Shown here: one piece after another, positions 1,852 to 20,024 of the stretch | Position numbering within the stretch: the first letter of the stretch is position 1 | How the letters are laid out: each line of letters opens with the position of its first letter | Origin: Candidatus Caldarchaeum sp. | GTDB lineage: Archaea > Thermoproteota > Nitrososphaeria_A > Caldarchaeales > Caldarchaeaceae | Length of the DNA stretch: 27,387 nt | Reading direction: 5' to 3' | NCBI GenBank assembly: GCA_038844785.1 | Contig: JAWBRA010000022.1 | Location: 1-27,387, forward strand | The notes under the pieces: model-generated | What the model was told of the DNA's origin: nothing | The model's input: only the letters and a program-made list of their open reading frames with translations | Databases searched by the model: none | Made by a program: the position numbers and the translations under genes

Positions 1852-1952
1852 GTCTACGGGGGATTATTCCCGCACTATTTAAAAAATACTCACTAGTCTC
1901 GAACTCAGCTCTGACCAAAGCTCTGCATGCGTCTGAGACTGCCTAGCTATGC

Positions 1953-2873
1953 TTAGACGACGTATCTCTCCATTTCTAGTATTCTTCTAGCTATCCTAAT
2001 AGTTGCGTCGTCAACCATTATTCCGTCTACTGAAATGGCTCCCTTCCCCTCTTTTGAAGCCTTTTCATAAGCTTGAATAATCTTCCGAGCTCTTTCAACC
2101 TCCTCCCTAGTAGGGGTGTAAATTTTATTACATATTTCTATCTGACTCGGATGTATTACCCATTTACCGTCGAAGCCCAGGCTTTTGGAAAGCTTAGCGG
2201 ATTTTACGAGCCCATCTAAGTCTGTGTAAAGGGCGTATGGGCCGTCTATAGCTTGCAGGCCAGCCGCTGCTGAAGCATTCCTTATGGTGAAAAGCGGGTA
2301 ATGCCATATATGGCCTGGATATTCCTCTGCGAGCCCGCCAATCACCAAAGAAGACATACCGACGCAGGAGGCATAATCGCCTGGCCCAAAGATGAAAGAC
2401 TCCAGCCTTAGGCTGCTGAATGCTATGTCTCCACTGCGCAGTAGCCCCTCAGCTGTCTCTATAATTGCTTCTAATCCTATGCGTGAATCTATGCCGAGCT
2501 CATCTTCTAGAGTTCCTAAGGTTTTATCGACTGTCTCGATGTCGGCTGGTCTGTTGACTTTCGGCACGACTACACAGTCTATCTTACTACCAACTCTGTT
2601 GAAAATGTATTGGAGGTCGTCGTTCCAGAATTTCGTTTCTACCGAATTTATTCTTAAAGCTATGGTCTTCTCTTTTTTCTCGACATTACTTAAAACTTCA
2701 ACAACGTTTTGTCTCGCTGTTTGTTTATGTTGCTCGGGAACGGATGCTTCAAGGTCGAAGATAACTTCGTCCGCCGCAGTCTCCAGAAGTGCTTTCTTCA
2801 TCATCTTAAGGCTGACAGCAGGCGTGACCAACTCGGTTCTTCGAATCCTGCGTCTAACCTGATGACGGCTCAT
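1953..2873 (-). CDS. CitE-like CoA-ester lyase (HpcH/HpaI aldolase/citrate lyase family; malyl-, citramalyl- or beta-methylmalyl-CoA lyase-like)
   Basis: DLEASV (canonical DLED), LRINS, VPKV, IIETAEG, FGPGDY, IDGPY, GFDGKWVIHPSQI and DGIMVD motifs. Start placed at ATG 2873 (MSRHQV). Confidence 0.9.
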   Translation of the reverse strand: MSRHQVRRRIRRTELVTPAVSLKMMKKALLETAADEVIFDLEASVPEQHKQTARQNVVEVLSNVEKKEKTIALRINSVETKFWNDDLQYIFNRVGSKIDCVVVPKVNRPADIETVDKTLGTLEDELGIDSRIGLEAIIETAEGLLRSGDIAFSSLRLESFIFGPGDYASCVGMSSLVIGGLAEEYPGHIWHYPLFTIRNASAAAGLQAIDGPYALYTDLDGLVKSAKLSKSLGFDGKWVIHPSQIEICNKIYTPTREEVERARKIIQAYEKASKEGKGAISVDGIMVDDATIRIARRILEMERYVV

Positions 2874-3121
2874 GACAGCTACACAGACTGTAATCAAATA
2901 TTAAAAATATAAGACGTTTTCCAGAATCTCTTCACGGTCTATGTATCTCAAGTCGGACGTGGTAGCATACACATACGAAGCCGTTGTAGAGCTTACCTGC
3001 GGAGCTGTGGATAACATGTTTTTGGAACGAGCGGTCTCACGAATATTGTAGAAAGGTCTACTGCAAATTTAGCTGTGCTTGGTTTTTAAAATATAAATGT
3101 CTCTCCGAATTTCTATGCAAC

Positions 3122-4411
3122 ATGTCCAGCTACAACGTTGGCGAGATGGGTTTTCCAGAAAACACACCGTTGGGAAGGCTTGATTTTGACAGAATGCTTC
3201 GTGAGAAACTCGCTAGGGCGAGGGAGAAGATGAAGCAGTATGGTCTCAGCGCAATTATTTGCACAACCGATATAAATGTAGGATACTGCACAAATGTTCC
3301 ACCTATTTTTCCTGGGGGAATGGCTGTAGGAGGTAACAGATACGCTATTCTTCCCATCGAAGGTGAGCCTGTGCTCTTTGAAGAATGCAACACTGCCTAT
3401 GTCCTCAAGCATACAATGTCCAGCATTAGAGTTGAATATTCGATACCAGGCTCAGGCGGCCCACATCTAGCCAGCGCCGCCGAAGCACAGGAATATCTAA
3501 CCAGGGAATGGGCTGAACAGTTAGCATCCGTGCTGAGGGAGTATAAGCTTCACAGAGAAAAGGTGGGTATAGATGTCGTCTCGCCCCCGCTGATCGAGGC
3601 TTTGAGGAAAGCTGGGCTGGACGTGACTCCGGACGGTGGCAAAGCTCTTTTAGAGTCTAGGATGGTAAAGACGTCGGTGGAGCTGCAGTGTATAAGGGCT
3701 CTGGCAGCGATTATAGACGGGGTTTTCGCAACACTAGCCAACAACCTTAGACCAGGTGTTACGGAGAAAGAAATATTCGCTAAATGTGTGGCGTACGCAA
3801 TCGAGCAGGGAGTGACGCCTTACGGAGGGTTCATAGTATCAGGCCCGCACACATGGCCTAAGGACAACTCACGCCCGTTTAGCGGTAGGAGAATAAGGCC
3901 TGGGGAGGTAGTGTACGCAGACTTCTTTAACTTCAGCCTGAACGGTTACAAATCATGCTATTACAGGACTTTCGTCGTCGGGAAAGCATGGAAAGAGCTT
4001 AAGGAGACTTACGAAAGAGTTTACAGCTGGCTGAAGGAGGCTGAGAAGAAGGTCAGACCCGGCAATACAACTAAAGACATTGTGGAAAGCTGGCCGGATG
4101 AAGACAGCCTCTGGTCTGAAAAGCCACCCTACATAAAAACAGAGAGGGAGAAACTCTCAACGTTCTGGATGAACATGGGTCACGGGATTGGGTTGGGCCT
4201 GTATGAACCGCCGTTTTTCTGGCGTCCTGTTGCATTAAAATGGCCTCAGAAGCTTGAGGCAAACATGGCTATAGCCCTTGAAACACTTGACTGCACCCCT
4301 GACGGCAAATCAGGTGTAAGAATAGAGGACATGATCATAGTCACTGAGTACGGTCACGAAATTATAAGCAAGTGGCCTGCCGAAGAAATAACGGAGGCCC
4401 CTCTCTTTTAG
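3122..4411 (+). CDS. M24-family (Xaa-Pro peptidase / creatinase fold) hydrolase or lyase with an atypical metal site
   Basis: Creatinase-like N-terminal domain, RMVKT..EL, YAD...GYKSCYYRT, GHGIGLGLYEPP, ALET and GVRIEDMI. AT-rich TATA-like box at ~3085-3097. Confidence 0.88.
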   Translation: MSSYNVGEMGFPENTPLGRLDFDRMLREKLARAREKMKQYGLSAIICTTDINVGYCTNVPPIFPGGMAVGGNRYAILPIEGEPVLFEECNTAYVLKHTMSSIRVEYSIPGSGGPHLASAAEAQEYLTREWAEQLASVLREYKLHREKVGIDVVSPPLIEALRKAGLDVTPDGGKALLESRMVKTSVELQCIRALAAIIDGVFATLANNLRPGVTEKEIFAKCVAYAIEQGVTPYGGFIVSGPHTWPKDNSRPFSGRRIRPGEVVYADFFNFSLNGYKSCYYRTFVVGKAWKELKETYERVYSWLKEAEKKVRPGNTTKDIVESWPDEDSLWSEKPPYIKTEREKLSTFWMNMGHGIGLGLYEPPFFWRPVALKWPQKLEANMAIALETLDCTPDGKSGVRIEDMIIVTEYGHEIISKWPAEEITEAPLF

Positions 4412-6278: not shown

Positions 6279-7751
6279 ATGATTTTTGACAGGGTTAAAG
6301 ACACTGACTTGAGGAATAAAATAAAGGATGCTTTAACCACGGTCAGGGATTTTTTCAACGATGGTGTAAGCGTTGCGTTCTCCGGGATGGCTGGAACAGC
6401 TGTGCCGAAAGAGATACCTAAAGCCATAGCTGAGATATCCAGGGAAAGAGGTGAAGGGCTCAGGATAAGAGCGCTTCTCGTGGCCGGAACAACCACGAAC
6501 AGCTTTGAGGAGTGCCTGTCTATGTCCAACGTGGAGGCAAGATACCTCATAGCCGGAGGCGGTGTTATGAGGGAGAGGGTAAACCAAGGGACGATAGAGT
6601 TCTTCGACTGCTGGCTGTCAGAGTATAGCCGGCTTGTGAGACATTCTGTAATTCCTAGCGGGGGTTTAGACATAGCGGTCATAGAGGCGACATACATCGA
6701 TGAGAACGGCAATATCATACCCTCGCTTTCGCTGGACTGCATCCCGGCCATCGTCAGCGCAGCTAAGATGGTTATAGTGGAGGTAAACACTCAGAAACCA
6801 GCTCTCAAAGGAATTCACGACATATACACCCCAGAACCCCGTACACCGATACCAATACGGCATGTGGGTGACCGTGTAGGCGTACCTTACCTGAGAATTC
6901 CTAAGTCAAAGATCTCATCTATAGTAATCAGCGAGGCCCAGGAGGAGTATGCGGCTGCCTACCAGCCTCCTACAAGGTTAGAGGAAAACATTGCACGTAA
7001 CATAATAGAGTTTCTAGAATCCTCTGAAGAGATGAAGGAGAACATGGTGCTCCAAGCGGGTGTCGGGCCTGTAGCAAGCCAGCTCGTTGACGAGCTTCCG
7101 CCGAAACATGTCTCGGTTTGGACCGAGGTGGCTCCAGCGAAGTGGGCGTTGGCAATTCCAGAAAAAATCAACAGCATGAGTACTGCTTGCTTGTACACTT
7201 TGAAGGGTGAGGAAAAGTTCAGGGATGAGTTTTACGAAAGTTTTGACAAGCTTTTCAAACACATAGTGATAAGACCATATGAGGTGACTAACTCGTTGGA
7301 GGTTATATCGAGGCTTCAGGTCATCTGCGTACAACAAGCTCTTGAAGTCGATTTGTACGGTAACACAAACGTCTCCCACATAGACGGGAAAATACATAAC
7401 GGTGTGGGCGGCTCCGGCGACTTTACACGTGCATCGCATCTGACTATTGTAGCCCTACCGTCAACGGCCGCTGGCGGAAGGGTTTCGAGGATAGTACCGT
7501 TTACACTCCACACCGACGTGGTAGAACACGACGTGGACGTTGTTGTCACTGAACAGGGATGGGCGGACTTACGAGGCCTGTCGCCAAGGAGAAGGGCGAG
7601 CCTTATAATCGAGAGATGCGCTCACCCAGACTTCAGAGACGAGCTTTACAAATACCTAACCGCAGTCAAGAAGCTTGAAGGACATGCGCCAGTAGATTTG
7701 GGAGCGTTTGCACAATTCCTTCAAACAAAAGCAAGCATTAAAAAGCATTAG
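6279..7751 (+). CDS. Acetyl-CoA hydrolase/transferase family CoA transferase (AarC/Cat1 succinate CoA-transferase-like)
   Basis: LDIAVIEAT, IVEVN, GIHDIY, LQAGVG, catalytic-Glu motif WTEV, EVDLYGNTN, NGVGGSGDF and VVVTEQGWADLRGLSP. TATA-like CTATAAA at 6243-6249. Confidence 0.92.
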   Translation: MIFDRVKDTDLRNKIKDALTTVRDFFNDGVSVAFSGMAGTAVPKEIPKAIAEISRERGEGLRIRALLVAGTTTNSFEECLSMSNVEARYLIAGGGVMRERVNQGTIEFFDCWLSEYSRLVRHSVIPSGGLDIAVIEATYIDENGNIIPSLSLDCIPAIVSAAKMVIVEVNTQKPALKGIHDIYTPEPRTPIPIRHVGDRVGVPYLRIPKSKISSIVISEAQEEYAAAYQPPTRLEENIARNIIEFLESSEEMKENMVLQAGVGPVASQLVDELPPKHVSVWTEVAPAKWALAIPEKINSMSTACLYTLKGEEKFRDEFYESFDKLFKHIVIRPYEVTNSLEVISRLQVICVQQALEVDLYGNTNVSHIDGKIHNGVGGSGDFTRASHLTIVALPSTAAGGRVSRIVPFTLHTDVVEHDVDVVVTEQGWADLRGLSPRRRASLIIERCAHPDFRDELYKYLTAVKKLEGHAPVDLGAFAQFLQTKASIKKH

Positions 7752-7878
7752 ATGGTTGAGAACTTTTAGGCAGTGACTAAACATGCTTAGATTGCTAGGA
7801 GGTAATGTTGAGGGTCTAAAAACTTACGCATATACATTTGTAAAAATATTTATATCCTATCAATCGTTGAAATCCCAT

Positions 7879-9279
7879 ATGAGCGGGACAGGCCAAACAA
7901 GAAGGCGGGTCATCACTACTATCGGAGCTGGTGTCGTTGGCGTGGTCATAGGAGGAGCGGCAGCGAGCCTTTTAGGAGGTGGAACAGCGGCTGAGAAGAC
8001 AGTCACAATAACTGGGCCACGTGAGACAGTAACACAGCCAGGTCCTACGATAACACGTACTGCAGAAGTAACAAAAACAGTCGAAAGAACATTGACAGTT
8101 GAAAAACAGTATCCACAAGCTCCAGCTGAAATCCGAGTGGGCTATTCGATTTCACTTACCGGGCAGTATGCCGCGACAGCGAAAAGACAGCATGACGGTG
8201 TGTTATTGTGGGCTGACTGGGTAAACAGGCAGGGGGGGCTTTTTGTCGCCGAATACAATAAAAAGATACCTGTGAAGCTGATATTCTATGACGACGAATC
8301 CAACACGGAGAGGGCTATAGTGCTCTATGAAAAGCTGATAACAGAGGACAAGGCACATGTCCTGTTAGGGCCCTACGGCAGCCCGCTAACCGCTGCCGTA
8401 GCTCCGATAGCTGAAAAACATAAAAAAGTTTTGATCACCAGCATGGGGGCCGATGACTACATTTTCGAGCAGGGCTACAAATACATAGTCCAGCCTCTAA
8501 CACCAGCAAGCCAATATCTCTACAGCTCGATAGATTTTCTGAAGGCTACTGATCCAGCAGCCAAAAGAATAGCCGTTATTTACAGAGATGTTGCCTTCAC
8601 TAAGGTGGCTGGTGAGAGCGCCGTCAATTACGCTAGACAACAAGGTTTTAACGTTGTTTACGTCAAGTCATATCCTGACAGAGTGTCTGACCTCTCCTCG
8701 ATTCTCTTAGAAGTCAAGGCCGCAAACCCGGACGCCCTATTGATAGGATCCCACATAGCTGACGGCACTCTTGCGGTTAGACAGCTTAAAGAGCTGGACA
8801 TAAACCTAAAGTTCGTAAGCGTTACGGTAGCGATAACTGAGCCGGCGTTCGTAGAAGGCGTCGGCGGATACAGGGCCGTAGAGGGATTGGCAGGACCTTC
8901 TCAATGGGAGGTAGGATATAAGGTCCAAAGGATTGACTATGGTCCCACAGCCGACGAGCTCATTGCATCATACGTTGCTAAATACAATGTTGAGCCAACA
9001 TACCACTCGACAGGCGGTTTCGCCGGCGCTCTATATCTGGGATACGTAATAGAGAAGGCTGGAACACTGGACAACGATAAGATAAGACAGTTTTTCAACA
9101 CGATGACGCTTTCGACAATGTACGGTGACTTTAAGATAGACCCGGCGACAGGCAAGCAGTTGGCGCATAAGATGGTCCTGGTGCAGTGGCAGGGAGGAAA
9201 GAAGGCGATAATATGGCCTCCTGAAGGAGCGACGGCAAAACCCACCTATCCGCTGCCTACGTGGGGCTCGAAAAAGTAA
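7879..9279 (+). CDS. Liv-type (branched-chain amino acid family) ABC transporter substrate-binding protein, probably Tat-exported and membrane-anchored
   Basis: N-terminal TRRRVI plus a hydrophobic helix, Thr/Val-rich linker, then SISLTGQYA, YDDES, YEKLITEDK and LLGPYGS. ATG 7879 has TTTATA ~25-30 nt upstream. Confidence 0.9.
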   Translation: MSGTGQTRRRVITTIGAGVVGVVIGGAAASLLGGGTAAEKTVTITGPRETVTQPGPTITRTAEVTKTVERTLTVEKQYPQAPAEIRVGYSISLTGQYAATAKRQHDGVLLWADWVNRQGGLFVAEYNKKIPVKLIFYDDESNTERAIVLYEKLITEDKAHVLLGPYGSPLTAAVAPIAEKHKKVLITSMGADDYIFEQGYKYIVQPLTPASQYLYSSIDFLKATDPAAKRIAVIYRDVAFTKVAGESAVNYARQQGFNVVYVKSYPDRVSDLSSILLEVKAANPDALLIGSHIADGTLAVRQLKELDINLKFVSVTVAITEPAFVEGVGGYRAVEGLAGPSQWEVGYKVQRIDYGPTADELIASYVAKYNVEPTYHSTGGFAGALYLGYVIEKAGTLDNDKIRQFFNTMTLSTMYGDFKIDPATGKQLAHKMVLVQWQGGKKAIIWPPEGATAKPTYPLPTWGSKK

Positions 9280-9325: not shown

Positions 9326-10032
9326 GGTACTGTCAACCAGGTATTACACCTCCTTCCCTTTGGGTGTTGAGTAGTGTGTTGTGTATTAGGGCTATGGCTG
9401 ATGCTATCTCTTCTATGCTCTTTACCTTCTTGGAGTTTATGTTGTTGTGGAATCTTCTGGTCCTGTCCTTGAGCTCCCTGAACCACCTCTCTATCCTGCT
9501 CCTCTCCCCAAACGTTTCATGGAAGTATTCTATGCCTAGACGCTTTAGAGCCCATGGGTACCATGGACCCCTATCAACCACTATTACTGGCTTACCTTCG
9601 CATGTGTTTAAAACCCTTTTAAGGAATGTTAACGCGTTTAGGATAGACCTACCCCTGGAGGCGTATACCGCTATTATCTCGCCTGCATCGACATCTATTG
9701 CAGACCATACGTAGACCCCCTCTCCCAGCCTCTTCTCAACCGTCTCATCGACGGCCACAAACCTCCTAGGCTTACGCATGGGGTTGAAGACCCTCCCCAG
9801 CCTATGAACCCACCCCCTAACACCCTCCCTAGAGGCATACCTCTCAGACACATCCCTAAGGCTAAGGCCAGCCAAGAATAAAAGAGAAGCGTAAGCCTTC
9901 CCACGAGGACTATAATTATGAAACCTGAAAAGCCTAGACAAGACGTCAACAAGATAGTCGAAGACATGCATGACCAGATGAGAACATCTCAAGCCATAGG
10001 CCTATCCGAAAAAGACTTAAGTTGACAGTGCC
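9326..10032 (-). mobile_element. Complete IS6-family insertion sequence (707 bp)
   Basis: Terminal IRs GGTACTGTCAAC (9326) and GTTGACAGTGCC (ending 10032) enclose a single transposase ORF whose stop codon lies inside the IR. Confidence 0.92.
9333..9992 (-). CDS. IS6-family DDE transposase
   Basis: GLSLRDVS...VRGWV HTH, and DDE triad in VAVDET, VVDRGPWY and RIERWFRELKDR. Start uncertain (TTG 9992 or a downstream ATG). Confidence 0.92.
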   Translation of the reverse strand: MRCSHLVMHVFDYLVDVLSRLFRFHNYSPRGKAYASLLFLAGLSLRDVSERYASREGVRGWVHRLGRVFNPMRKPRRFVAVDETVEKRLGEGVYVWSAIDVDAGEIIAVYASRGRSILNALTFLKRVLNTCEGKPVIVVDRGPWYPWALKRLGIEYFHETFGERSRIERWFRELKDRTRRFHNNINSKKVKSIEEIASAIALIHNTLLNTQREGGVIPG

Positions 10033-10392: not shown

Positions 10393-11598
10393 GTGTGGTG
10401 GCTCACCAAACAGAGAAAAGAGTTCATAGAGCTCGCGAGAAACACCGTCAAGTCTATAATGAAAAACTACAGCTCTAGATACTGGGTGGAAAAGGACGAA
10501 GAACGGAGATTCCCCATAGAATTTGTTCAGGAAGTCGAAAAACATGGGTTAATGGGTGTTAACATCCCAGAGGAATACGGCGGCTCCGGCTACGGTGTAA
10601 CAGAGGTTGACATAATCCTTGAGGAGATAGCGGCTTCAGCTGGGGGTGTTGTGGCTTCGAACACAGTTCACGCAGGTTTCTTCAACAACCACATGTTGGT
10701 GAAGTACGGGAAAGAAGATGTTAAACATAAGTATTTGCCCGAGCTGGCGAAAGGTAGGCTGAGGTTCCAGGTCTTCGCAGTAACGGAGCCTCAAACAGGG
10801 TTTAATACACTCCGTATGAAGACAATTGCTAGACGTGAGGGAGATTACTACGTCATCAACGGCCAGAAAGCCTTCATCTCCAGGGTCCGGTATTCAGATT
10901 TGGGAATCATCGCCGCCCGAGTTATACCCTACGAGGAGGCAAAAAAGAAAACAGAGGGAATAGCTCTATTCCTAGTAGATCTCAGGAACTCTCTAGGGAA
11001 AGAGATCAAGGTAGAGGAAATACCAAACAACGTAAGACGACCCATTGACACCAATATGATGTATATCAATGAGCTGTCCGTGCCAGCGCATCATTTACTG
11101 GGCGATGAGGTAAAAGGCTTCTACTACCTGCTTGAAGAAGCTAACGTTGAACGTACACTCATTGCCGGACAATGCGTCTCCATGGGCAGGTATGCTGTTA
11201 AAAGAGCTGTGGAATACGCTAAGGAAAGGATTGTGTTCCCGCCTGACCCGATAGCAAAGTATCAGGGAATCCAGTTTCCTTTAGCCGATGCATGGATAAG
11301 GTTGGAGGCTGCAGACGCCTTGAAGTGGAGGGCCTTAGAGCTTATTGACAACGGCGGGGATTTAAAAGAAATAGGCTACTATTCTAACATCGCCAAACAC
11401 ATTTCAGCTGAGGCATGCGCGTTCGCGTGTAGGACAGCCGTTCTAACATTAGGAGGGTATGGCTATTCGATCGACATGGATCTTGAAAGGTTGTGGCGTG
11501 CAAGCGAGTTCATGATTTTTGCTCAGATATCTCCGCAAATGGTGTTAAATTTTGTAGCCACAAATGTGTTGGGGATGCCAAGGTCTTACGGACATTAG
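10393..11598 (+). CDS. Acyl-CoA dehydrogenase (resembles the subfamily associated with methylsuccinate/itaconate clusters)
   Basis: IPEEYGGSG, YLPELAKGRLRFQVFAVTEP, INGQKAFISR, NVERTLIA (LCAD/IVD-type catalytic Glu position), QGIQFPLA, GGYGY and C-terminal AQISPQMVLNFVA..VLGMPRSY with no MCAD-type Glu. Confidence 0.92.
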   Translation: MWWLTKQRKEFIELARNTVKSIMKNYSSRYWVEKDEERRFPIEFVQEVEKHGLMGVNIPEEYGGSGYGVTEVDIILEEIAASAGGVVASNTVHAGFFNNHMLVKYGKEDVKHKYLPELAKGRLRFQVFAVTEPQTGFNTLRMKTIARREGDYYVINGQKAFISRVRYSDLGIIAARVIPYEEAKKKTEGIALFLVDLRNSLGKEIKVEEIPNNVRRPIDTNMMYINELSVPAHHLLGDEVKGFYYLLEEANVERTLIAGQCVSMGRYAVKRAVEYAKERIVFPPDPIAKYQGIQFPLADAWIRLEAADALKWRALELIDNGGDLKEIGYYSNIAKHISAEACAFACRTAVLTLGGYGYSIDMDLERLWRASEFMIFAQISPQMVLNFVATNVLGMPRSYGH

Positions 11599-11608
11599 GT
11601 GTTGAAAA

Positions 11609-12133
11609 ATGACAGAACCGGAAGAGCAAGCACCGCCATGGAATGGCGAGGGCCCTTACTTCGAAGACTTCAAAACCGGTATGAAGATTAGATCATGGCC
11701 AGGTCGGACCTTCACAGAATACGACAACTACAGCTGGCTTTCCTATACCGGCGACTGTACACCGCTGTACATAGACAAAGAATACGCGAAAGTTGCGGAA
11801 TATGGTAGAATAATCATACACCCATTGATTGTCTTAAACGCGTTGCTAGCTATGAGCGTTAAAGACAGCAGCATGAACACACTGGCTTTCCTGCAAGCCG
11901 ATTACATGAAAATCTACAGACCAGTATATCCTGGTGACACGCTGTATGTTGAGACAGAAGTCATCGACGTCCGCGAATCGAGGTCGCGTCCTAATGCAGG
12001 CATAGTTACTTGGATACATCGCGGCTACAATCAGAATAACGAGTTAGTCGGCGAGATAAAAAGGACGAATCTCGTCTACAAAAGGTCTAGCTCTCCTTGG
12101 CGTGAATATTTAAAAAAGGTGCGTGGGACATAA
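11609..12133 (+). CDS. MaoC-family (hot-dog) enoyl-CoA hydratase, RipB/Mch-like, subunit 1
   Basis: YFEDF..G, PGRTFTEYDN, GDCTPLYID, RPVYPGDTLY and RESRSRPNAGIVT. RBS-like AGGTG upstream. Confidence 0.88.
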   Translation: MTEPEEQAPPWNGEGPYFEDFKTGMKIRSWPGRTFTEYDNYSWLSYTGDCTPLYIDKEYAKVAEYGRIIIHPLIVLNALLAMSVKDSSMNTLAFLQADYMKIYRPVYPGDTLYVETEVIDVRESRSRPNAGIVTWIHRGYNQNNELVGEIKRTNLVYKRSSSPWREYLKKVRGT

Positions 12134-12135
12134 CC

Positions 12136-12639
12136 ATGAAGGTGTTTTCAGGCTATCCCGGGTTGTTTTTCGAAGATGTTAAGCCAGGGCAAACCATTGT
12201 GCATCGGCTAGGAAGAACGGTCACCTTTCAGGATAACCTGTTCTTCTCACACACTCTGCTTAACACAGCATGCCTGCATTTCGACGGAGAATACATGCAG
12301 TTTACAGAGTTTAAACAACCGCTTTTAGTGATGACGATGGTTCTTGGAATAACTTACGGTATAACTTCTGAAGACTTTAAGAATGTTGCAAAGGAGAAAG
12401 AGATTAGAAATCTTAAAATGCTCGCCCCCGTCTTCGACAAAGATACATTACACGTTGTCACAGAGATCTTAGAAACCAGAGAAGAGCCAGACAGGAATGA
12501 TGTTGGTTTAGTCGTAGCCCGTCACAAAACTTACAAGAACAACTTTACTATTCAGGTCATGGAGGTTGACAGAGAGTTTCTTCTCTACAGACGAGATCAT
12601 TCACCGCGCTGGCGTATCCCACTCCAAGAACTACGTTAA
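12136..12639 (+). CDS. MaoC-family (hot-dog) enoyl-CoA hydratase, RipB/Mch-like, subunit 2
   Basis: FFEDVKPGQTIVHRLGRTVT..DN, NTACLHFD and APVFDKDTL. Starts 2 bp after subunit 1. Confidence 0.88.
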   Translation: MKVFSGYPGLFFEDVKPGQTIVHRLGRTVTFQDNLFFSHTLLNTACLHFDGEYMQFTEFKQPLLVMTMVLGITYGITSEDFKNVAKEKEIRNLKMLAPVFDKDTLHVVTEILETREEPDRNDVGLVVARHKTYKNNFTIQVMEVDREFLLYRRDHSPRWRIPLQELR

Positions 12640-12860
12640 CCGTAATTAAACAGCGGCATTTTCAGCAACATACTTAATTGCACAAACAGGCTGGTCCGTG
12701 ATGAATTGAAGATGTTACACGATAAGAGCGATGACAACCGTCATAGAACCACCGGAAGAATGTGAGAAACTACCACCGTAGCCTTGCTACACGTTTTTCA
12801 GCAAGCAACTTTTCACTTCTTACCGGGGCTATGGCTATTAAACCTGAATAAGATAACAAC

Positions 12861-12870
12861 TCTTATATTA
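12861..12870 (+). promoter_or_regulatory. Putative TATA box of the mutase operon
   Basis: TCTTATATTA about 25 nt upstream of GTG 12892, consistent with a leaderless archaeal transcript. Confidence 0.45.
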
Positions 12871-12891
12871 CTGAGGCTTACTGATAAAATT

Positions 12892-14550
12892 GTGAGCTTC
12901 GGAAAATGGTACACGGAGACCCTACAGCCTTACAGAGAAAAACATGGATTGAGGAAGAAACAGTTTTACACTAGAACCTCAAAAATACCGATAAAAGATA
13001 TCTACACACCCAGCGATCTAGGTGAAGGATGGAGTTATGAGGAGAAGCTAGGATATCCCGGTGCGTATCCGTTTACAAGAGGGGTGTACCCTACAGGCTA
13101 CAGGGGGAGGATATGGACGATAAGACAATACGCCGGATACGGCGACCCTGAGGAGACGAACGATATTTTCAAGAAGTTGTTGTCATGGGGTCAAACAGGT
13201 TTAAGTGTTGCCTTTGACTTACCAACCCAGCTAGGATACGACCCCGACAATCCGCTCGCATATGGCGAAGTGGGGAGAGTAGGTGTCTCGGTCCCAACGC
13301 TTAAGGAAATGGAGTTAATTTTTCAAGACATCCCGCTTGAAAAAGTTTCAGTCTCCTTTACAATAAATGCCACAGCACCCATAATGCTGGCTATGTTCAT
13401 AGCTGCAGCCGAGAAATCAGGTGTTCCGATGAGGTCTTTAGCGGGAACAGTGCAGAACGACAACCTGAAAGAACTTAGTGCGAGAAATGCTTTCATCTTC
13501 CCTCCAAAGCCATCCCTTAAGCTAAGCGTTGACGTAATAGAGTTCTGCGTAAAAAATATGCCGAGGTTCGTTCCGATAAACGTCTGCGAAGCCCATTACC
13601 GGGAGGCCGGCGCCAGCGCCACGACCGCAGCCGGCCTCGCTTTTTCCAACGCTATAGCTTATGTCGGATCCGCCCTTAAGAGGGGTCTAGACGTAGACAG
13701 CGTAGCTCCGAGAATAGCGTTTTACACATACTCACACATAGACTTCTTCGAGGAAGTTGCCAAGCTAAGAGCGATGAGGAGGATTTGGGCTAGGCTTTTA
13801 AGAGAACGGTTCGGGGCTAAAGACCCAGCCTCCATGGCTCTTAAGATAGGAACCGCTGTTGGTGGCAGCGTTTACACAGTTGAGGAGCCGCTGATAAATA
13901 TCGTGAGGGGAACGATCGGTGCTTTGGCTGCTGTGCTTGGAGGGGTGCAGTCGATGAATATTGCATGCTTCGACGAGGCGTACGCAATTCCAACACCACA
14001 GTCGCTGAAACTCTCCGTTCGGACCCAACAAATAATAGCCTACGAGAGCGGTGTGGCTGATGTTGTGGATCCGTTGGGCGGCTCTTACTATGTTGAGTGG
14101 CTGACTGATGAAATAGAGAAAAAGATTACAGAAGTGATTAGCAAAATAGAGGACGTGGGGGGTGCGGTGGAAGCTATTGAGAAAGGCCTTTACCATCAGA
14201 TAATTTCAGCAGAAGCCTACAATTTTCAGAAAGAAGTGGAAAATGGGGACATACCAGTAGTGGCCCACAACATCTTTAAAGAAACAGCTAGTGATGAACA
14301 GGAAATCGAATACTATAGGTTCAGGAAAGAAGTCTACGATAAGGCTCTTGAACGTTTGGAGAAAACTAAGCTGAACAGAGACTCGGCGAGGGTGAAAACA
14401 ACGTTAAAGGCTTTAAGAGATGCGGCTGAATCTGGTGAAAACGTTATGCCAGCCATAATAGACGCTGTGAAAGCTTATGCAACAGTAGGCGAGATCTGTG
14501 AGGTGTTGCGAGATGTATATGGCGAATACAAAGAGCCTTCACCGATATAG
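12892..14550 (+). CDS. Adenosylcobalamin-dependent acyl-CoA mutase, large substrate-binding subunit (methylmalonyl-CoA mutase family, divergent pocket)
   Basis: PGAYPFTRGVY, WTIRQYAG, GLSVAFDLPTQLGYD, GEVGRVGV, TINATA, GTVQND, FFEEVAKLRAMRR, DEAYAIPT and DPLGGSYYVEWLT. GTG 12892 chosen as start. Confidence 0.95.
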   Translation: MSFGKWYTETLQPYREKHGLRKKQFYTRTSKIPIKDIYTPSDLGEGWSYEEKLGYPGAYPFTRGVYPTGYRGRIWTIRQYAGYGDPEETNDIFKKLLSWGQTGLSVAFDLPTQLGYDPDNPLAYGEVGRVGVSVPTLKEMELIFQDIPLEKVSVSFTINATAPIMLAMFIAAAEKSGVPMRSLAGTVQNDNLKELSARNAFIFPPKPSLKLSVDVIEFCVKNMPRFVPINVCEAHYREAGASATTAAGLAFSNAIAYVGSALKRGLDVDSVAPRIAFYTYSHIDFFEEVAKLRAMRRIWARLLRERFGAKDPASMALKIGTAVGGSVYTVEEPLINIVRGTIGALAAVLGGVQSMNIACFDEAYAIPTPQSLKLSVRTQQIIAYESGVADVVDPLGGSYYVEWLTDEIEKKITEVISKIEDVGGAVEAIEKGLYHQIISAEAYNFQKEVENGDIPVVAHNIFKETASDEQEIEYYRFRKEVYDKALERLEKTKLNRDSARVKTTLKALRDAAESGENVMPAIIDAVKAYATVGEICEVLRDVYGEYKEPSPI

Positions 14551-14974
14551 GAGGAAACCAAGAATATTGCTTGCTAAAGGCGGTCTTGACGGACATGACA
14601 GAGGCCTCAGGGTTCTCGCCTTGGCTTTGAGGGATTCAGGGTTTGAAGTGGTTTACCTTGGAATGAGGGTTACCGCAGAGACCGTACTTAACGCCGCCAT
14701 AGAAGAGGATGTGGACGTTATCGGGTTGAGTTTCCTTTCAGGAAGCCATCTGCCCTACTTGGAGAAGCTGATGCGGCTGATAAAGAACGAGCGTATAGAG
14801 AGACAGTTCAAAATAGTGGTGGGCGGAGTCATTCCACGGAAGGACATAGATGAACTATATGCTATGGGTGTTGACAAAGTTTTTCCTGTGGGGTCAAAGT
14901 TGGGCGACATAATTTCATACTTGGAATCGCTGGGAGTGGAAGATGATGAGAAAAAACAAAGTAACAACCTTTGA
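14513..14974 (+). CDS. Acyl-CoA mutase small, cobalamin-binding subunit
   Basis: DxHxxG motif GLDGHDRG, GLSFLSGSH and VVGGVIP. Overlaps the end of the large subunit. Start is ATG 14513 (after GAGGTG) or 14519. Confidence 0.95.
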   Translation: MYMANTKSLHRYRRKPRILLAKGGLDGHDRGLRVLALALRDSGFEVVYLGMRVTAETVLNAAIEEDVDVIGLSFLSGSHLPYLEKLMRLIKNERIERQFKIVVGGVIPRKDIDELYAMGVDKVFPVGSKLGDIISYLESLGVEDDEKKQSNNL

Positions 14975-15854
14975 AGACGCTCTGCAACACGTCAAAGATG
15001 GATGCCGGGTTGCGATAGGAGGTTTTCAGCTTGCTTCAAGACCTATGACGTTGCTGAGGATGGTGATGAAAAACCATATCAGCGGGCTTACGGTGGTTTC
15101 TCCACCAAGCGGGCTCGACGTTGATATGCTCATAGCAGCCGGAGTTGTTAAGAGGATAATCACATCCTATGTGGGCGGTGAGACGATAGCAGGCATAGGG
15201 CCTGTCTTCAGAAGAGCTGTCGAGAACAACGAGATTGATGTCCGCGAATACGATACAGGCATGTTAATAGCCGCCTTGAGAGCTGAAAGCGAGGGGCTGC
15301 CTTTCGCGCCATGGCGTGGAGGATTAGGTACCTCGATACAGCAAGTAAACCCCGATCTAAAAACTTTCACAGATCCCATAACTGGTTCAAGGCTGCTCGC
15401 GGTCCCGGCGTTATCGGCTGACGTAGCTTTGATACATGCATCCTTGGCAGATGAATATGGAAACATACAACACTTGAGCCACCCGTTGCTGGACAGGCTA
15501 ATAGCCTCTGCAAGCAAGAAAGTGATCGTGGAAGTTGAGAAGATAGTGAGTAACGAATACATCAGGGCCCATTACTGGAGAACTTCAATACCTAACTACA
15601 TGGTTGAAGCGGTTGTCGTAACACCGTATGGAGCACACCCGACATCCAGCCCTGGGTTCTACACAACCGATATCGAACATCTTGCTCACGAGTATGTACC
15701 AGCCGCGAACGCGTGGTTGAAGGGAGACCAAGAACCGTTGAAAAGATATCTCAGCAAATATGTTTACGGCCCGAAAGATCATTGGGAGTATCTGCAGCTC
15801 ATAGGTTTTGAAAAACTGTTTTCTTTAGACAGTATCTATCATGATTCAGTTTAA
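14943..15854 (+). CDS. Class I CoA-transferase-fold protein, subunit A (GctA/CatI/IpdA-like)
   Basis: VKDG..VAIGGF...RPM, DVDMLIAAG, GLPFAPWRGGLGT, DVALIHA..ADEYGN, VIVEVEKIV and PYGAHPTS. Confidence 0.9.
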   Translation: MMRKNKVTTFEDALQHVKDGCRVAIGGFQLASRPMTLLRMVMKNHISGLTVVSPPSGLDVDMLIAAGVVKRIITSYVGGETIAGIGPVFRRAVENNEIDVREYDTGMLIAALRAESEGLPFAPWRGGLGTSIQQVNPDLKTFTDPITGSRLLAVPALSADVALIHASLADEYGNIQHLSHPLLDRLIASASKKVIVEVEKIVSNEYIRAHYWRTSIPNYMVEAVVVTPYGAHPTSSPGFYTTDIEHLAHEYVPAANAWLKGDQEPLKRYLSKYVYGPKDHWEYLQLIGFEKLFSLDSIYHDSV

Positions 15855-16623
15855 ACCATCTTGGAGGGAGATCCTAGCGACGTTCATATCACGCCAAATC
15901 CATGACAACACTGTCGTAGCCGTCGGTACAGGGTTGCCCGTCCCTAGGGCAGGCGTCCTGCTCGCCCACTTTACACATGCTCCAAACATGACGGTTGTTC
16001 TAGGTCCGTATGCGTGCAACCTTCTACCGTTCAAACAAGTGTTCTCTTTCGAGTTTTTCGCAGACTGGAGATACTCCAGATACGCGGAGGCCACAGTGGG
16101 CTTAGACGAGATAATGGGAAAAACAAACTTCTTTGACGTATTTTTTGTTAGCGGTCTACAGGTCGACAAGTTTGGGAACGTTAACCTGTTTGGAATTAGA
16201 GATGGCAATGTTTACAGGCTTAAGGGTCCAGGCCCTATAGGCGTGGCTTCGTTGACTACAAACTCTCGCAGGTTCATCATCTACCTTGAGAGACATGATG
16301 CAAGAACCTTGGTCGATAGATGCGACCTCGTGAGCGCCATGGGATGGTGTAGGGACAACATATACCGTGGTGAGCTTGGTCTCCGTGGAGGGCCCGAGTA
16401 CATCGTGACACCTCTAGCCGTATTTTCATTCGACACGCCGACACGCCAAGCTAGACTAAAGTATTTGATGCCCGGGGTCACGGTCGACCAGGCTGTAGCT
16501 CAAACAGGATTCACATTTGACTATTCGGATGTGAAAGAGCTTCAACCACCGTCTGACGAAGAACTAAGAGTTTTGAGGGAGAAGGTCGACCCCGAGGGAA
16601 AGCTTAGACTGGGAGGAATCTAG
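15841..16623 (+). CDS. Class I CoA-transferase-fold protein, subunit B (GctB/CatJ/IpdB-like)
   Basis: VGTGLP, THAPN, SGLQVDKFGNVN, IVTPLAVFSF, PGVTVDQAVAQTGF and PPSDEELRVLREKVDP. Confidence 0.9.
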   Translation: MIQFKPSWREILATFISRQIHDNTVVAVGTGLPVPRAGVLLAHFTHAPNMTVVLGPYACNLLPFKQVFSFEFFADWRYSRYAEATVGLDEIMGKTNFFDVFFVSGLQVDKFGNVNLFGIRDGNVYRLKGPGPIGVASLTTNSRRFIIYLERHDARTLVDRCDLVSAMGWCRDNIYRGELGLRGGPEYIVTPLAVFSFDTPTRQARLKYLMPGVTVDQAVAQTGFTFDYSDVKELQPPSDEELRVLREKVDPEGKLRLGGI

Positions 16624-17342
16624 CCCGATGTCTGGGCCAACCAGCTCTTAACTAAGTCGGGAACCTTAGTGTTGAGCTCCATCTTACTGCCTGATAATGT
16701 TACTCGCCCCATCTCCAGCACATAGATATGGTCAGCAAGCTGCACCGCGGCCCTAATGTTCTGGTCCACCAGCAGGATTGTTAACCCCTTCTCTTTAAGC
16801 CTCAAAATCTCCGAATAAATCTCCTTCGCCACTTTCGGCGCGAGGCCTGCTGTCGGCTCGTCTAAAAATAACATTTTCGGCTCGACCATTAAAAGCCTGC
16901 CGAGCTCTAGCATTCGTTGCTCTCCCCCGCTCAAGCTTCCAGCCTTTTGACCCCTCTTTTTCCTTAAGAAAGGATAATGGTCGTACACTGACTCCAGCGC
17001 GTTGGCAACCCTTTTTTTGTCCCTTTTGAACAACCATGCTCCAAGCTTCAAATTCTCCTCGACAGTCATCTCAGGGAAAATCTCCCTCTCCTGAGTCAAG
17101 TACGCTATCCCCATCCGAAGGAGCTTGTAAGGTTTTTCGCCAGTTATTATCCTATTATCGTAGATTACATTTCCACTAGAAGGCTTAATAAAACCATATA
17201 TAGTCTTCAACAACGTAGATTTGCCGGCTCCGTTAGGGCCTATCACGACGGTTATCTCCCTATCTTTGACCTCCATGTTTACATCATCCAGAACTATCAC
17301 ACCCTTAATGTAGCTCGCGCTAAGCTTGCTTACCACCAACAT
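16620..17342 (-). CDS. livF: Liv-type ABC transporter ATP-binding protein (LivF-like)
   Basis: GPNGAGKST, MTVEENL, LSGGEQRML and LDEPTAGLAP. ATG at 17342. Confidence 0.92.
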   Translation of the reverse strand: MLVVSKLSASYIKGVIVLDDVNMEVKDREITVVIGPNGAGKSTLLKTIYGFIKPSSGNVIYDNRIITGEKPYKLLRMGIAYLTQEREIFPEMTVEENLKLGAWLFKRDKKRVANALESVYDHYPFLRKKRGQKAGSLSGGEQRMLELGRLLMVEPKMLFLDEPTAGLAPKVAKEIYSEILRLKEKGLTILLVDQNIRAAVQLADHIYVLEMGRVTLSGSKMELNTKVPDLVKSWLAQTSG

Positions 17343-17343
17343 A

Positions 17344-18072
17344 TCAAACACCCAAGTACGATTCAATAACTTCTGCTGACAGCGTAACCTCGCTGGGAAC
17401 GCCTTCAGCGATTTTTTTCCCGCTGTTCATGGCTACCAGCTTGTCCGAGACCGATGTTATGGCTTTCATGTCGTGGCTTACTATCAGAAATGACGTACCC
17501 CCTATCTTCATATCACGAACAGTTGAGAGAATTGTCTCCTTGATATTGGGATGCACTCCTGCCAGAGGCTCATCCATCAAGACAACTTTCGGATCTGTAA
17601 TTAAAGCCCTAGCTATCTCAAGCAGCTTTTGCTGCCCGCCTGAGAGCTCGGAGGCGAGCATGTTTTCCATACCTGTCAGCCCAACAAGCTTTAGAAGTTT
17701 TGAGGCCTTGTTATGCATTTCAGCACCCCCCAGCTCGGTTGAGGCCATAGGCACTAGCACATTTTCAAGCACAGTCATGTTTTTAAATAGCTTGGGTATC
17801 TGAAAGGTTCTCGCGAGGCCCATCCTCATCAACACGTGGGGGCGGAGGCCAGTAACCCTTACACCTTCAAGCTCAACATACCCGCTGTCGGGTTTGATGA
17901 GACCTGATATCAGGCTGAGCAGCGTTGTTTTTCCAGCCCCGTTAGGGCCTATCAACCCAACTATTTCGCAGCGGCCAACCTCTATATCTACGTTATCGAC
18001 AGCAGTCACTCCGCCGAACTTCTTCGTCATACCTAAAGCCCTTAACACCTTACCTCTTGACAAAACCTTCAC
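17344..18072 (-). CDS. livG: Liv-type ABC transporter ATP-binding protein (LivG-like)
   Basis: FGGVTAVD, GPNGAGKTT, ARTFQ, LSGGQQKLLEIARAL, MDEP and SHDM. Exact start uncertain. Confidence 0.92.
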   Translation of the reverse strand: MKVLSRGKVLRALGMTKKFGGVTAVDNVDIEVGRCEIVGLIGPNGAGKTTLLSLISGLIKPDSGYVELEGVRVTGLRPHVLMRMGLARTFQIPKLFKNMTVLENVLVPMASTELGGAEMHNKASKLLKLVGLTGMENMLASELSGGQQKLLEIARALITDPKVVLMDEPLAGVHPNIKETILSTVRDMKIGGTSFLIVSHDMKAITSVSDKLVAMNSGKKIAEGVPSEVTLSAEVIESYLGV

Positions 18073-19039
18073 CTCTCAGCTTAACAATCTTACGTTTCCG
18101 TGCAAACCATTCCACACCTCCTACGACTCCACGGGGAGCGAATCTAACTGTCAACGTAAGCAACACACCAAACAGGAGAAAGTGAACTTCAGGATAGTTT
18201 ACTAACAGGTTTATCTTGGATATGTAGAAGACTATGCTCCCGATAACAGGGCCGAGCACCGTTCCCGCACCACCTATCAAGACTACTATGTACATCTCGA
18301 TTGTAGTAGTTATCTGGAAAACGGTTTCAGGGTTTACATAGGTTGAAAGCCATGCGAAGATCCCGCCAACAAAGCCTGTGAAGAAAGCGCTGAAAGTGAA
18401 GACTAGCCTTTTGTATCTCGTTGTGTTCACACCCATCGATTCCGCCGCCTCCTCATTTTCTTTTATCGCCCTAAGCTCAACTCCTATGATGGATTTTATT
18501 ATAAGATAAAACAATGCCAGAAGACCTGTAAAAACCGCTAAAAGAGTATAGTATGCTTCAAAGAGCTCATAGCTTGTCAGAATCACCATGCCGTATGACC
18601 CTCCCAAAAAACCCATTTTCAAAAAGATCAGCCGAATGGTTTCGGCCAATCCTAAGGTAGCGATGGCAAAGTAAATCCCCCTAGTTCTCAACAAAGGAAG
18701 GGACAGCGCATATGCCAAGCCTGCAACAAACACCCCTGCTAGAAGAGGCGCTAGAGGCATCGGAATGCCTAAAAACTTGTAGAAGACAGCAACAGCGTAA
18801 GCTCCTAAACCATAGAATGCAACCTGTCCAAAATTCACGTAGCCTAGCAGGCCGTAAAAGAGGTTAAGAGCCATCCCTAAGCATGCGTATCTGAGAATCT
18901 CAAAAGCAATGGCTGTTTGGTACGTGGTTAAAATGAATGGGAAGATTATGAAGAGTATTGTTACTGCGATTAGAGGAGCGAGCTCCAAAAACCGTATTGG
19001 CGACACCAGTCTCAACGGCTTAGCCAAAGAGCTTTTCAC
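18050..19039 (-). CDS. livM: Liv-type ABC transporter permease (LivM-like)
   Basis: GYVNFGQVAFYGLGAY, RGIYFAIATL, AIKENEEAAESMGVN and IGGAGTVLGP. Confidence 0.9.
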   Translation of the reverse strand: MKSSLAKPLRLVSPIRFLELAPLIAVTILFIIFPFILTTYQTAIAFEILRYACLGMALNLFYGLLGYVNFGQVAFYGLGAYAVAVFYKFLGIPMPLAPLLAGVFVAGLAYALSLPLLRTRGIYFAIATLGLAETIRLIFLKMGFLGGSYGMVILTSYELFEAYYTLLAVFTGLLALFYLIIKSIIGVELRAIKENEEAAESMGVNTTRYKRLVFTFSAFFTGFVGGIFAWLSTYVNPETVFQITTTIEMYIVVLIGGAGTVLGPVIGSIVFYISKINLLVNYPEVHFLLFGVLLTLTVRFAPRGVVGGVEWFARKRKIVKLRGEGFVKR

Positions 19040-19895
19040 CTCTTACCACAATCGCCGAAACTATAATGGCCAACGCTAGACCTGTAGAGAACACCGGGTC
19101 TGTCAGAACAGAGAAAACAGACTCTATTGCTCCGAACGCTATCGCTGAAGCGAGGACGCCGAAAGGGTTTGTAACACCGCCGACGAGAACTATGGCGAAG
19201 GATTTCAGAGTGTACAGAGACCCCATGAAAGGATCGACGTGGGCTATGCTCCATGAAATCAGCCCGCCTGCAACGGAGGCTAAAACTATTCCTATGACAA
19301 AGCCTAAGAGATAAACCATGTCCATGTTTATTCCAACAAGTGCCGCGGCACGTCTGTTCTGGATGACGGCACGCAGGGCTGAACCCCAGTAGCTTCTGTA
19401 AAGGAAGATGAATAGAATGGCGACGAACGTTATAGCTATCGAGAAAGCTAGCAATCGGCTTCCAACAAGAGTTACGGGCCCTAAGGTCACATGGCCAAGC
19501 TCCAACGCAACCCCCCTGACGTCAACAGACCATATGAGGATGATTATGTTTATCATTATTAGTGAAAGTCCGAAAAGAGCAAGAAGACTCGCTAAAATTT
19601 CAATCTTAGCCAGCTGCCTGACAACAGAGAAGTATAGTATGGTTGCAAGCCCTAATCCAATCAAGGCCGAGGCTATGATGGCTGTCAAGACCTGCACCGA
19701 AAGCTCGCCACCTCGCATCATGTTTATGGCCCAGTATGAGGCATAAGCGCCCACCATAAGGAACTCTCCGTGAGCGACGTTAACAAGCCTTAAAACACCC
19801 CACGTAACCATCAGCCCTAAACTCGCCAGCGCGTAAATACCTCCTTGTAGAAGACCAAGTACTAGGGATTGCATCAGCAGCTCTGCAGACAGCAC
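19020..19895 (-). CDS. livH: Liv-type ABC transporter permease (LivH-like)
   Basis: GGIYALASLGL, VNVAHGEFLMVGAY, RAVIQNRRAAALVGIN and FAIVLVGG. GTG 19895 chosen because TTTAA lies ~26-30 nt upstream. Confidence 0.9.
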   Translation of the reverse strand: MLSAELLMQSLVLGLLQGGIYALASLGLMVTWGVLRLVNVAHGEFLMVGAYASYWAINMMRGGELSVQVLTAIIASALIGLGLATILYFSVVRQLAKIEILASLLALFGLSLIMINIIILIWSVDVRGVALELGHVTLGPVTLVGSRLLAFSIAITFVAILFIFLYRSYWGSALRAVIQNRRAAALVGINMDMVYLLGFVIGIVLASVAGGLISWSIAHVDPFMGSLYTLKSFAIVLVGGVTNPFGVLASAIAFGAIESVFSVLTDPVFSTGLALAIIVSAIVVRGEKLFG

Positions 19896-20024
19896 GGCTA
19901 GAGGTCTTTTTTCATAGGACTTAAACTTTTTTAGAGCTGACAATGTTCTGATGCAGTGTCCCGCAGACACTGGCTGCTGGGTTGTCGCGTAAATTCTTAT
20001 TAGAGCCGTTTGGTTAGCTTTTTC

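Follow-up and report, generated by a model that had tools for sequence, protein, structure and literature searches.

A CoA-transferase-like subunit pair lacking the beta and alpha glutamates of its relatives accompanies a B12-dependent mutase in Candidatus Caldarchaeum

We analyzed a 27,387-nucleotide stretch of DNA (the window) from the hot-spring archaeon Candidatus Caldarchaeum, in which the archaeal markers Alba and DUF2070 are present and in which a B12-dependent acyl-coenzyme A (acyl-CoA) mutase is followed by two genes for a pair of proteins related to glutaconate CoA-transferase GctAB, to the ring-opening hydrolase IpdAB and to the decarboxylase AibAB. The alpha-type subunit A (14943..15854, + strand; 303 amino acids) matches the Pfam family PF01144 (CoA_trans) at 3e-35, and the beta-type subunit B (15841..16623, + strand; 260 amino acids) matches the same family at 4.3e-08 in its C-terminal half only. 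As far as can be judged from sequence, the pair is a member of a glutamate-less branch of the family that is set apart by the loss of two glutamates, one in each subunit, and by its coupling to the mutase. It probably performs an undescribed job on the substrate or the product of that mutase.

Catalytic residues of the subunit pair

Subunit B contains the segments ...THAPNMTVVLGPYACN... and ...KGPGPIGVA.... The catalytic beta glutamate, which in functional GctAB enzymes lies in the motif (I/V)xE(S/A/G)G and forms the thioester between enzyme and CoA, is absent from B, and Gly55 stands in its column. In the profile alignment GctB Glu54, AibB residue 56 and Gly57 of IpdB from RHA1 all face Gly55 of B; residue 56 of AibB is the position that differs among the PDB entries 5N00-5N03. 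The MAFFT alignments concur on the placing of the catalytic residue, and in the single-sequence HMMER alignment to GctB (1POI_B) the catalytic 'ES' faces a gap in B. The glycine loop of B reads GPGPIGVA; the loop is PGVAGA in AibB and PGSGGA in the canonical relatives. Among 20 aligned B homologues from Thermoproteota the combination of (V/I/F)xE(S/A/G/T)G and PGSGGA occurred in 16, one of the other four being the ortholog of B itself, and 17 carry either PGSGGA or PGSGGG.

Three further residues of B deserve mention. Glu83, at a position that reads 'AE' in the alignments, is nearly invariant in the subclade to which the pair belongs (described below) and is also found in IpdB and AibB, while GctB has Asn there. 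Tyr57 is kept in part of the subclade (11 of 16 rows), and Glu71, the glutamate of FSFEFF, is not conserved in it. In the AlphaFold2 (AF2) model of B, which has a mean predicted confidence (pLDDT) of 89.6, Glu83 lies in strand 82-85, following the strand that ends at Gly55. Foldseek comparison of this model gave template-modeling (TM) scores of 0.82 with 1POI_B, 0.77-0.85 with AibB and 0.75-0.81 with IpdB.

Subunit A contains ...GGET... and ...REYDTGM.... The MDEGM motif of IpdA aligns to YDTGM of A, so that Thr105 occupies the column of the IpdA glutamate, and profile alignments confirm this column. The glutamate in question is reportedly catalytic in IpdAB, and PDB entry 6COJ differs from 6CO6 exactly at this residue. 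Column 105 is Glu in 32 of the 40 rows of the alpha-subunit alignment (A4), Gly in AibA (as D-G) and Ser in GctA. The sequence matches of A in the PDB were IpdA (6CO6, 6COJ and 6CON; 4e-35 to 1e-34), GctA (1.8e-33) and AibA (2.3e-33); its AF2 model has a pLDDT of 93.3.

With both glutamates missing, the pair is in a state like that of AibAB, which is the closest precedent for a doubly glutamate-less enzyme and was not mentioned in the original prediction, a note made from the DNA sequence of the window. That note had pointed to the missing catalytic glutamate and the altered glycine loop of B and to the missing IpdA-type glutamate of A, and all three points were borne out by the alignments. 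The residue features are no chance occurrence, being retained in orthologs at 66-81% identity and throughout the subclade. Moreover, 40 columns are invariant across 16 subclade B sequences that have 38-81% identity to B of the window. Lacking both the beta nucleophile and the IpdA-type alpha glutamate and having a changed oxyanion loop, the pair would not act as a ping-pong CoA transferase; every point that can be tested on sequence agrees with this. The changes at the beta glutamate, the loop and the alpha glutamate likewise favor the proposal, made in the original prediction, of a repurposed CoA-ester enzyme.

A mutase-linked subclade

A profile of the subclade was searched against 1.84 billion cluster representatives, which gave 246 matches at E <=1e-30, and residues were read in the best 149 of these. 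Among these 149, the column of Gly55 holds Glu in 22, Gly in 36 and Ala in 22, and the glutamate equivalent to Glu83 ('AE') is present in 66. Loss of the beta glutamate is common in the family, and two enzymes that have undergone it, the hydrolase IpdAB and the decarboxylase AibAB, have been characterized. The loss reported in the original prediction is real, but since it is so widespread it is by itself less remarkable than had been implied. Plasmid records contained other glutamate-less pairs, located in CoA-ester catabolic operons with class III CoA transferases, dehydrogenases and hydratases. Among the matches to the cluster representatives, six (P0161, P0168, P0186, P0188, P0249 and P0250) are glutamate-less single chains of ~540-610 amino acids with the B-like part at the C-terminal end, in appearance fusions of alpha and beta. 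Further long matches of that search (P0196, P0243 and P0266) keep the canonical Glu and PGSGGA. The ESM Atlas returned only generic 'CoA-transferase subunit beta' clusters.

A scan of metagenomes yielded 80 loci (labeled L below) with relatives at 37-80% identity, and 566 stretches in all that encode a relative. A FastTree phylogeny of B was built from 75 glutamate-less sequences and 24 more distant ones. The 75 glutamate-less rows split into a 12-row clade (support of the Shimodaira-Hasegawa-like type 94) and a 63-row sister clade (support 91), and every mutase-linked row falls in the 12-row clade. The two clades also differ in the alpha subunit: the glutamate at column 105 is found in none of the 10 known alpha subunits of the 12-row clade, which have T, L, V, N or Q, as against 48 of 48 (as D-E) in the 63-row clade. 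An adjacent B12 mutase of the methylmalonyl-CoA-mutase type accompanies 7 of the 12 rows and 0 of the 63.

The mutase-linked rows are the window, L043, L044, L049, L080 (where only the start of the gene for the mutase small subunit, MutS, is visible), L089 and L113; the near-identical loci L115 (to L089) and L119 (to L113) contain the mutase as well. Four of the 12 rows (L046, L075, L076 and L082) lie on contigs too short for linkage to be judged. Gene order differs between the archaeal and the bacterial members of the subclade. With MutL denoting the mutase large subunit, the order is ScpC-MutL-MutS-A-B in L043, where a ScpC-like transferase gene lies directly upstream; 3HCDH-A-B-MutL-MutS in L049, with SucCD-like genes further on; A-B-MutL-MutS-SucC-SucD-hydantoinase in L089; and A-B-AOR-carboxyltransferase-MutL-MBL-MutS in L113, AOR being an aldehyde:ferredoxin oxidoreductase. 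The linkage with the mutase thus persists through rearrangement, which argues for functional coupling. It is conserved well beyond this genome, in line with the earlier suggestion that the pair acts next to the mutase. In L113 the region further upstream (L113:241-6146) encodes PrpF, two PrpD/MmgE-family proteins, an isocitrate/isopropylmalate-dehydrogenase-like protein and a sigma-54 activator, which hints at a tricarboxylate or methylcitrate-type metabolism feeding the module of mutase and pair.

The 63-row clade has other surroundings. Its neighbors include a helix-turn-helix-cupin regulator with a PotA-like ATP-binding cassette (ABC) transporter (14 of the 137 neighboring open reading frames (ORFs) scanned), and citrate-synthase-like proteins, short-chain dehydrogenases/reductases and acyl-CoA dehydrogenases are also common. 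The pairs of Thermoproteota were considered as functional equivalents and rejected: the canonical Glu is present at 16 of their 19 loci, counted without the ortholog in L023, and no mutase lies close to these pairs. In the literature searched, no account of a CoA-transferase-like enzyme linked to a mutase was found.

The neighboring mutase

The mutase preceding the pair consists of a large subunit (12784..14550, + strand; PF01642, 1e-187; TIGR00641, 645 bits) and a B12-binding small subunit (14498..14974, + strand; PF02310, 1.6e-27; TIGR00640, 130 bits). The large-subunit ORF has a TTG start and a hydrophobic leader of 35-40 residues that is aligned by no homologue, and its true start is probably some 35-40 codons downstream of 12784.

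All linked mutases keep the Tyr of RQY and the Arg of xRN/xRG of the methylmalonyl-CoA mutase (MCM) structures 1REQ and 2XIJ, along with a SVAFD-type motif. This Tyr and Arg bind the carboxylate of the substrate. In the mutase of the window the motifs are RQYAG, SARNAF and SVAFD; the corresponding residues of HcmA (4R3U) are Ile, Gln and Asp. A single further mutase is encoded in the same genome (contig C6:12807-15690, - strand), beside a MeaB-like GTPase, and it has a Phe/Gln signature of the isobutyryl-CoA-mutase type, so that the mutase of the window is the only carboxylate-type mutase in the genome. At 13600-13700 the window mutase and its close orthologs read CEAHYRE; the corresponding MCM sequence is SGYHMQE, and the MCM and HcmA structures conform to SGYH(M/I)(Q/S)E. 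Next to the catalytic His, the window mutase, L113 and L119 have Ala in place of the Tyr, which is kept in L049 and L089. Because of this replacement the pocket may be enlarged or otherwise altered, and the substrate may be larger than methylmalonyl-CoA.

Gene organization of the locus

The pair closes a co-directional row of genes on the + strand. The row starts with a conventional CoA transferase (6279..7751) that belongs to family I, is of the acetyl-CoA hydrolase/transferase type, is similar to ScpC/YgfH and AarC and matches the succinyl-CoA:acetate transferases 2G39 (4e-81) and 4EU3 (about 1e-72) in the PDB; its match to TIGR03458 (2.4e-113) is under the cut-off of that model. It is followed by the solute-binding protein of a Liv-type ABC transporter (7783..9279; PF13458, 4e-56) and by an acyl-CoA dehydrogenase with Pfam ACAD domains (10393..11598). 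The latter has AcrC as its top NCBIfam match (4.7e-55, below cut-off) and short-chain and butyryl-CoA dehydrogenases as its top PDB matches, and is thus of the short-chain, monocarboxylic type. Two adjoining genes for subunits of a MaoC-type (R)-hydratase come next (11609-12133 and 12136-12639; PF01575 and PF19315); their matches to RipB/Ich (2.4e-31 and 7.6e-25) are both below cut-off. The mutase large and small subunits, A and B complete the row. The start of A overlaps the ORF of the mutase small subunit by 32 nucleotides, and the start of B overlaps A by 14 nucleotides. Both the overlap with the mutase gene and the presence of a conventional CoA transferase at 6279 agree with what had been stated in the original prediction.

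Between the genes of the binding protein and the dehydrogenase lies an IS6-family transposase gene on the opposite strand (9333..9992, - strand; NF033587, 3e-30), for which no ORF was found at the matching position in the syntenic loci L002 and L044. Its insertion may split the operon and alter expression of the downstream mutase and A/B genes. On the other side of the row, the LivF-, LivG-, LivM- and LivH-like ABC transporter genes (16620..19970, - strand) converge on B. Upstream of the row, at 934-2897 (- strand) and 3122-4411 (+ strand), are genes for a 3-hydroxyisobutyrate-dehydrogenase-like protein, a CitE/HpcH-type acyl-CoA lyase-like protein and an M24 peptidase. L043 and one of the related genomes (G306) likewise have the peptidase and the dehydrogenase alongside the module, so that these two may share its pathway.

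Genomic context

Three genomes bear the module: that of the window (G000, 95% complete), G231 (90%) and G306 (82%). These were the only ones among the 61 genomes of the order searched that have orthologs of the window mutase at >=85% identity, and A/B is present in the same three, which indicates that the module is accessory and moves as a unit. The biotin-type carboxyltransferase domain PF01039 was not found in G000, G231 or G306 and was found in two of three other members of the genus. Methylmalonyl-CoA epimerase (TIGR03081) was not found in the six genus genomes searched, and crotonyl-CoA carboxylase/reductase (Ccr) was not found in G000, where the best match scored 90 bits against a cut-off of 379. 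Given these absences, the genomes show neither a further source nor a further sink of (alkyl)malonyl-CoA. Published reconstructions point the same way: mutase, epimerase and carboxylase subunits are reported missing in the genome analysis of C. subterraneum (PMC3082918), and methylmalonyl-CoA epimerase is listed as missing in a reconstruction of Aigarchaeota (PMC4681859).

The own genome also contains a second CoA_trans pair (contig C24:10100-14400; ~309 and 249 amino acids), with two crotonase genes and a gene for a medium-chain dehydrogenase/reductase on its flanks; this is likely to be an ordinary CoA transferase operon of the 3-oxoacid type. In three RNA libraries from two studies there are short contigs that match 14264-16117 at 95-100%, and one of them spans the junction between MutS and A. 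They are a weak sign of transcription, as DNA carry-over is possible, and they cover only part of the window, regions outside 14264-16117 being uninformative in this respect.

Possible functions of the pair

AibAB (PDB 5MZW) is a 3-methylglutaconyl-CoA decarboxylase in which the glutamate of the family is replaced by Cys; its substrate is a dicarboxylic acyl-CoA, and calculations favor direct decarboxylation via an enolate (PMC7756340). By analogy with this enzyme we tentatively favor the reading that A/B is a cofactor-independent decarboxylase that would convert (alkyl)malonyl-CoA to propionyl- or butyryl-CoA in a route like that of ScpA, ScpB and ScpC. In such a route the ScpC-like transferase at 6279 would activate succinate or methylsuccinate, recycling CoA onto the incoming dicarboxylate, and the mutase would rearrange the CoA ester to (2R)-methylmalonyl-CoA or a larger 2-alkylmalonyl-CoA. 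A/B would then bind the product of the mutase, with the thioester held at the remodeled GPGxxG loop, and would decarboxylate it in a direct reaction by way of an enolate, the course that the calculations give for AibAB. Protonation of the enolate would come from a nearby acid, for which Tyr57 and Glu83 of the beta subunit are candidates. After release of CO2, propionyl- or butyryl-CoA could be passed to the short-chain dehydrogenase and MaoC hydratase of the operon. The pair would be a non-orthologous replacement of the crotonase-type decarboxylase ScpB/YgfG. The residue losses, the placement in the family, the linkage to the mutase and the absences across the genomes are observed; what the pair acts on, which reaction it carries out and what Tyr57 and Glu83 do in it are inferred.

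Several observations weigh against a decarboxylase. The genome has six crotonase-family genes, any of which could be a ScpB-type decarboxylase. In G306 (L142, G306:C29:9000-17500) A/B is intact, with 98-99% identity, and the mutase is truncated: of its large subunit only the last ~300 residues are left, abutting the M24 peptidase gene, the Liv genes are present as fragments and several neighbors are deleted. This arrangement is either a deletion variant or a mis-assembly. The subclade member L084 has no mutase within 10 kb on either side, and all the evidence from the subclade goes back to a single phylogenetic event and does not count as independent replication. The unusual CEAHYRE pocket leaves the substrate of the mutase uncertain. 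As to the proposed active site, Tyr57 is present in only the 11 of 16 subclade rows given above, Cys56 of AibB faces Gly in B, and Glu72 of AibB faces Gln66 in a poorly aligned stretch. Finally, the operon of L113 includes a biotin-type carboxyltransferase, which is a better fit to an epimerase than to a second decarboxylase.

Such an epimerase is the main rival of the decarboxylase, although we consider it unlikely. As an analogue of the VOC-family enzyme, A/B would interconvert the 2S and 2R forms of 2-alkylmalonyl-CoA via the thioester enolate and thereby admit the products of carboxylases to the mutase. An epimerase is the one partner common to every alkylmalonyl-CoA mutase in any pathway, and it fits the SucCD contexts of L089 and L049 as well as the carboxyltransferase context of L113. 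The failure to find TIGR03081 in six Caldarchaeum genomes also suits an epimerase, as does its listing as missing in the Aigarchaeota reconstruction (PMC4681859), and no VOC domain was present among 30 scanned neighboring ORFs of L049, L076, L084, L089 and L113. However, with neither a carboxyltransferase found in the three module-bearing genomes nor Ccr in G000, the 2S form would have no maker or user there. Furthermore, a mechanism with two bases calls for a pair of acid/base residues, and the alpha glutamate is gone from the subclade. A variant in which intramolecular CoA transfer on methylmalonyl-CoA would invert C2 was rejected, as it would lack the nucleophile and would presumably have to pass through a four-membered anhydride. 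The ethylmalonyl-CoA pathway was also rejected as a setting for the module: Ccr was not found in the own genome, and the dehydrogenase is of the short-chain type.

A hydrolase like IpdAB, a retro-Claisen enzyme, a thioesterase or some other lyase or isomerase, acting on another CoA ester of the route such as a 3-hydroxyacyl-CoA or a beta-keto thioester, seems to us a rather improbable identity for A/B. In its favor, the solved structures closest to the pair include those of IpdA and IpdB, B shares the Gly at the glutamate column with IpdB from RHA1 (PMC5380842), the plasmid-borne glutamate-less pairs sit in CoA-ester catabolic operons, and PDB entry 9CQ2 bears the title 'CtfAB E46D active site mutant hydrolase'. 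Against this, the IpdAB alpha glutamate, to which a catalytic role is ascribed and for which the 6COJ variant is indirect support, is missing in 10 of 10 known alpha subunits of the subclade, and a hydrolase would leave the specific linkage to the mutase unexplained.

It is quite improbable that A/B is still a CoA transferase with a relocated nucleophile, e.g. Glu83 of the beta subunit, that activates methylmalonate, propionate or another acid. Glu83 is nearly invariant and in the model lies on a strand following the one that ends at Gly55. The aldehyde:ferredoxin oxidoreductase of L089/L113 would yield a free acid that has to be activated, and the stretches covered of these two loci show no other transferase. 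Yet the same glutamate is present in IpdB and AibB, which are not transferases, and the oxyanion loop is remodeled. With IpdAB, which has Gly in place of the beta glutamate, no CoA transfer was seen between acetyl-, propionyl- or succinyl-CoA and the corresponding acids (PMC5380842). The Caldarchaeum loci (window, L002/L044 and L043) moreover have a conventional transferase in the same cluster. That A/B is a non-catalytic, CoA-ester-binding partner of the mutase or a decaying remnant is very improbable, for although both classical catalytic residues are missing and the module is partly deleted in G306, the subclade keeps 40 invariant columns over 16 sequences at 38-81% identity, the reading frames are intact, both models are confident and RNA-library contigs lie over the genes.

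Proteins of this kind are routinely annotated as 'glutaconate CoA-transferase subunit A/B', a label that is very probably wrong for the group of this pair. The wider proposal is that there is an unrecognized family with the CoA-transferase fold whose members serve B12-dependent alkylmalonyl-CoA mutases as partners, either as a decarboxylase free of cofactors or as an epimerase, and which, in organisms without biotin carboxyltransferases and the known epimerase, forms the missing link from C4/C5 dicarboxylates to propionyl- or butyryl-CoA; we hold this to be possible but doubtful. If it is a decarboxylase or an epimerase, the pair would fill a recurring gap in pathway reconstructions of Aigarchaeota, evident in one of them (PMC4681859), and of other uncultured lineages. 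IpdAB and AibAB would then be joined by a third chemistry that arose independently from loss of the transferase glutamate, and engineered routes from succinate to propionate or through C5 dicarboxylates could gain a thermostable enzyme that needs no cofactor. The pattern of alpha and beta glutamates offers a simple sequence rule that divides the family into functional classes.

Comparison with known enzymes

GctAB of Acidaminococcus fermentans (1POI) is the best match for B, at 3e-25 in a single-sequence search and 2.6e-43 with a profile, and the subunits are of equal size. It differs in having Glu54 and the SGG loop, both absent in B, and an Asn where B has Glu83.

For A the best PDB match (4e-35) is IpdAB, the COCHEA-CoA ring-opening hydrolase of steroid catabolism (6CO6, 6CO9 and 6CON). 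IpdB resembles B in the Gly at the beta glutamate column (PMC5380842) and in the beta glutamate of the 'AE/IEG' position. IpdA, however, has Glu in MDEGM where A has Thr, and the IpdA-like D-E is kept by the 63-row sister clade and not by the mutase-linked subclade. No steroid-catabolic gene context was seen at the locus, where the neighbors are the mutase, acyl-CoA dehydrogenase, MaoC, CoA transferase and Liv genes.

AibA/AibB of Myxococcus xanthus (5MZW-5N03) shares with the pair the two-subunit fold, the absence of Glu at the beta catalytic column and at alpha position 105, a PGxxGx loop in place of PGSGGA, and the conserved beta 'AE' glutamate. The sequence identity of AibB to B is only ~22%. 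Of the two residues of the AibB proton relay, Cys56 stands where B has Gly55, and Glu72 aligns to Gln66 of B in a gapped and unreliable stretch. The contexts differ as well: AibAB serves isovalerate biosynthesis and has a vinylogous substrate, whereas the pair described here is found with a B12 mutase and would act on a malonyl-type thioester.

In E. coli the Sbm-YgfG-YgfH (ScpA-ScpB-ScpC) proteins are encoded by a succinate-to-propionate operon. The likeness to the module is one of role, with the role of the pair proposed by analogy: each operon combines a succinyl-CoA transferase, a B12 mutase and one more enzyme, as in L043. ScpB is a decarboxylase of the crotonase fold, whereas A/B has the fold of a CoA transferase.

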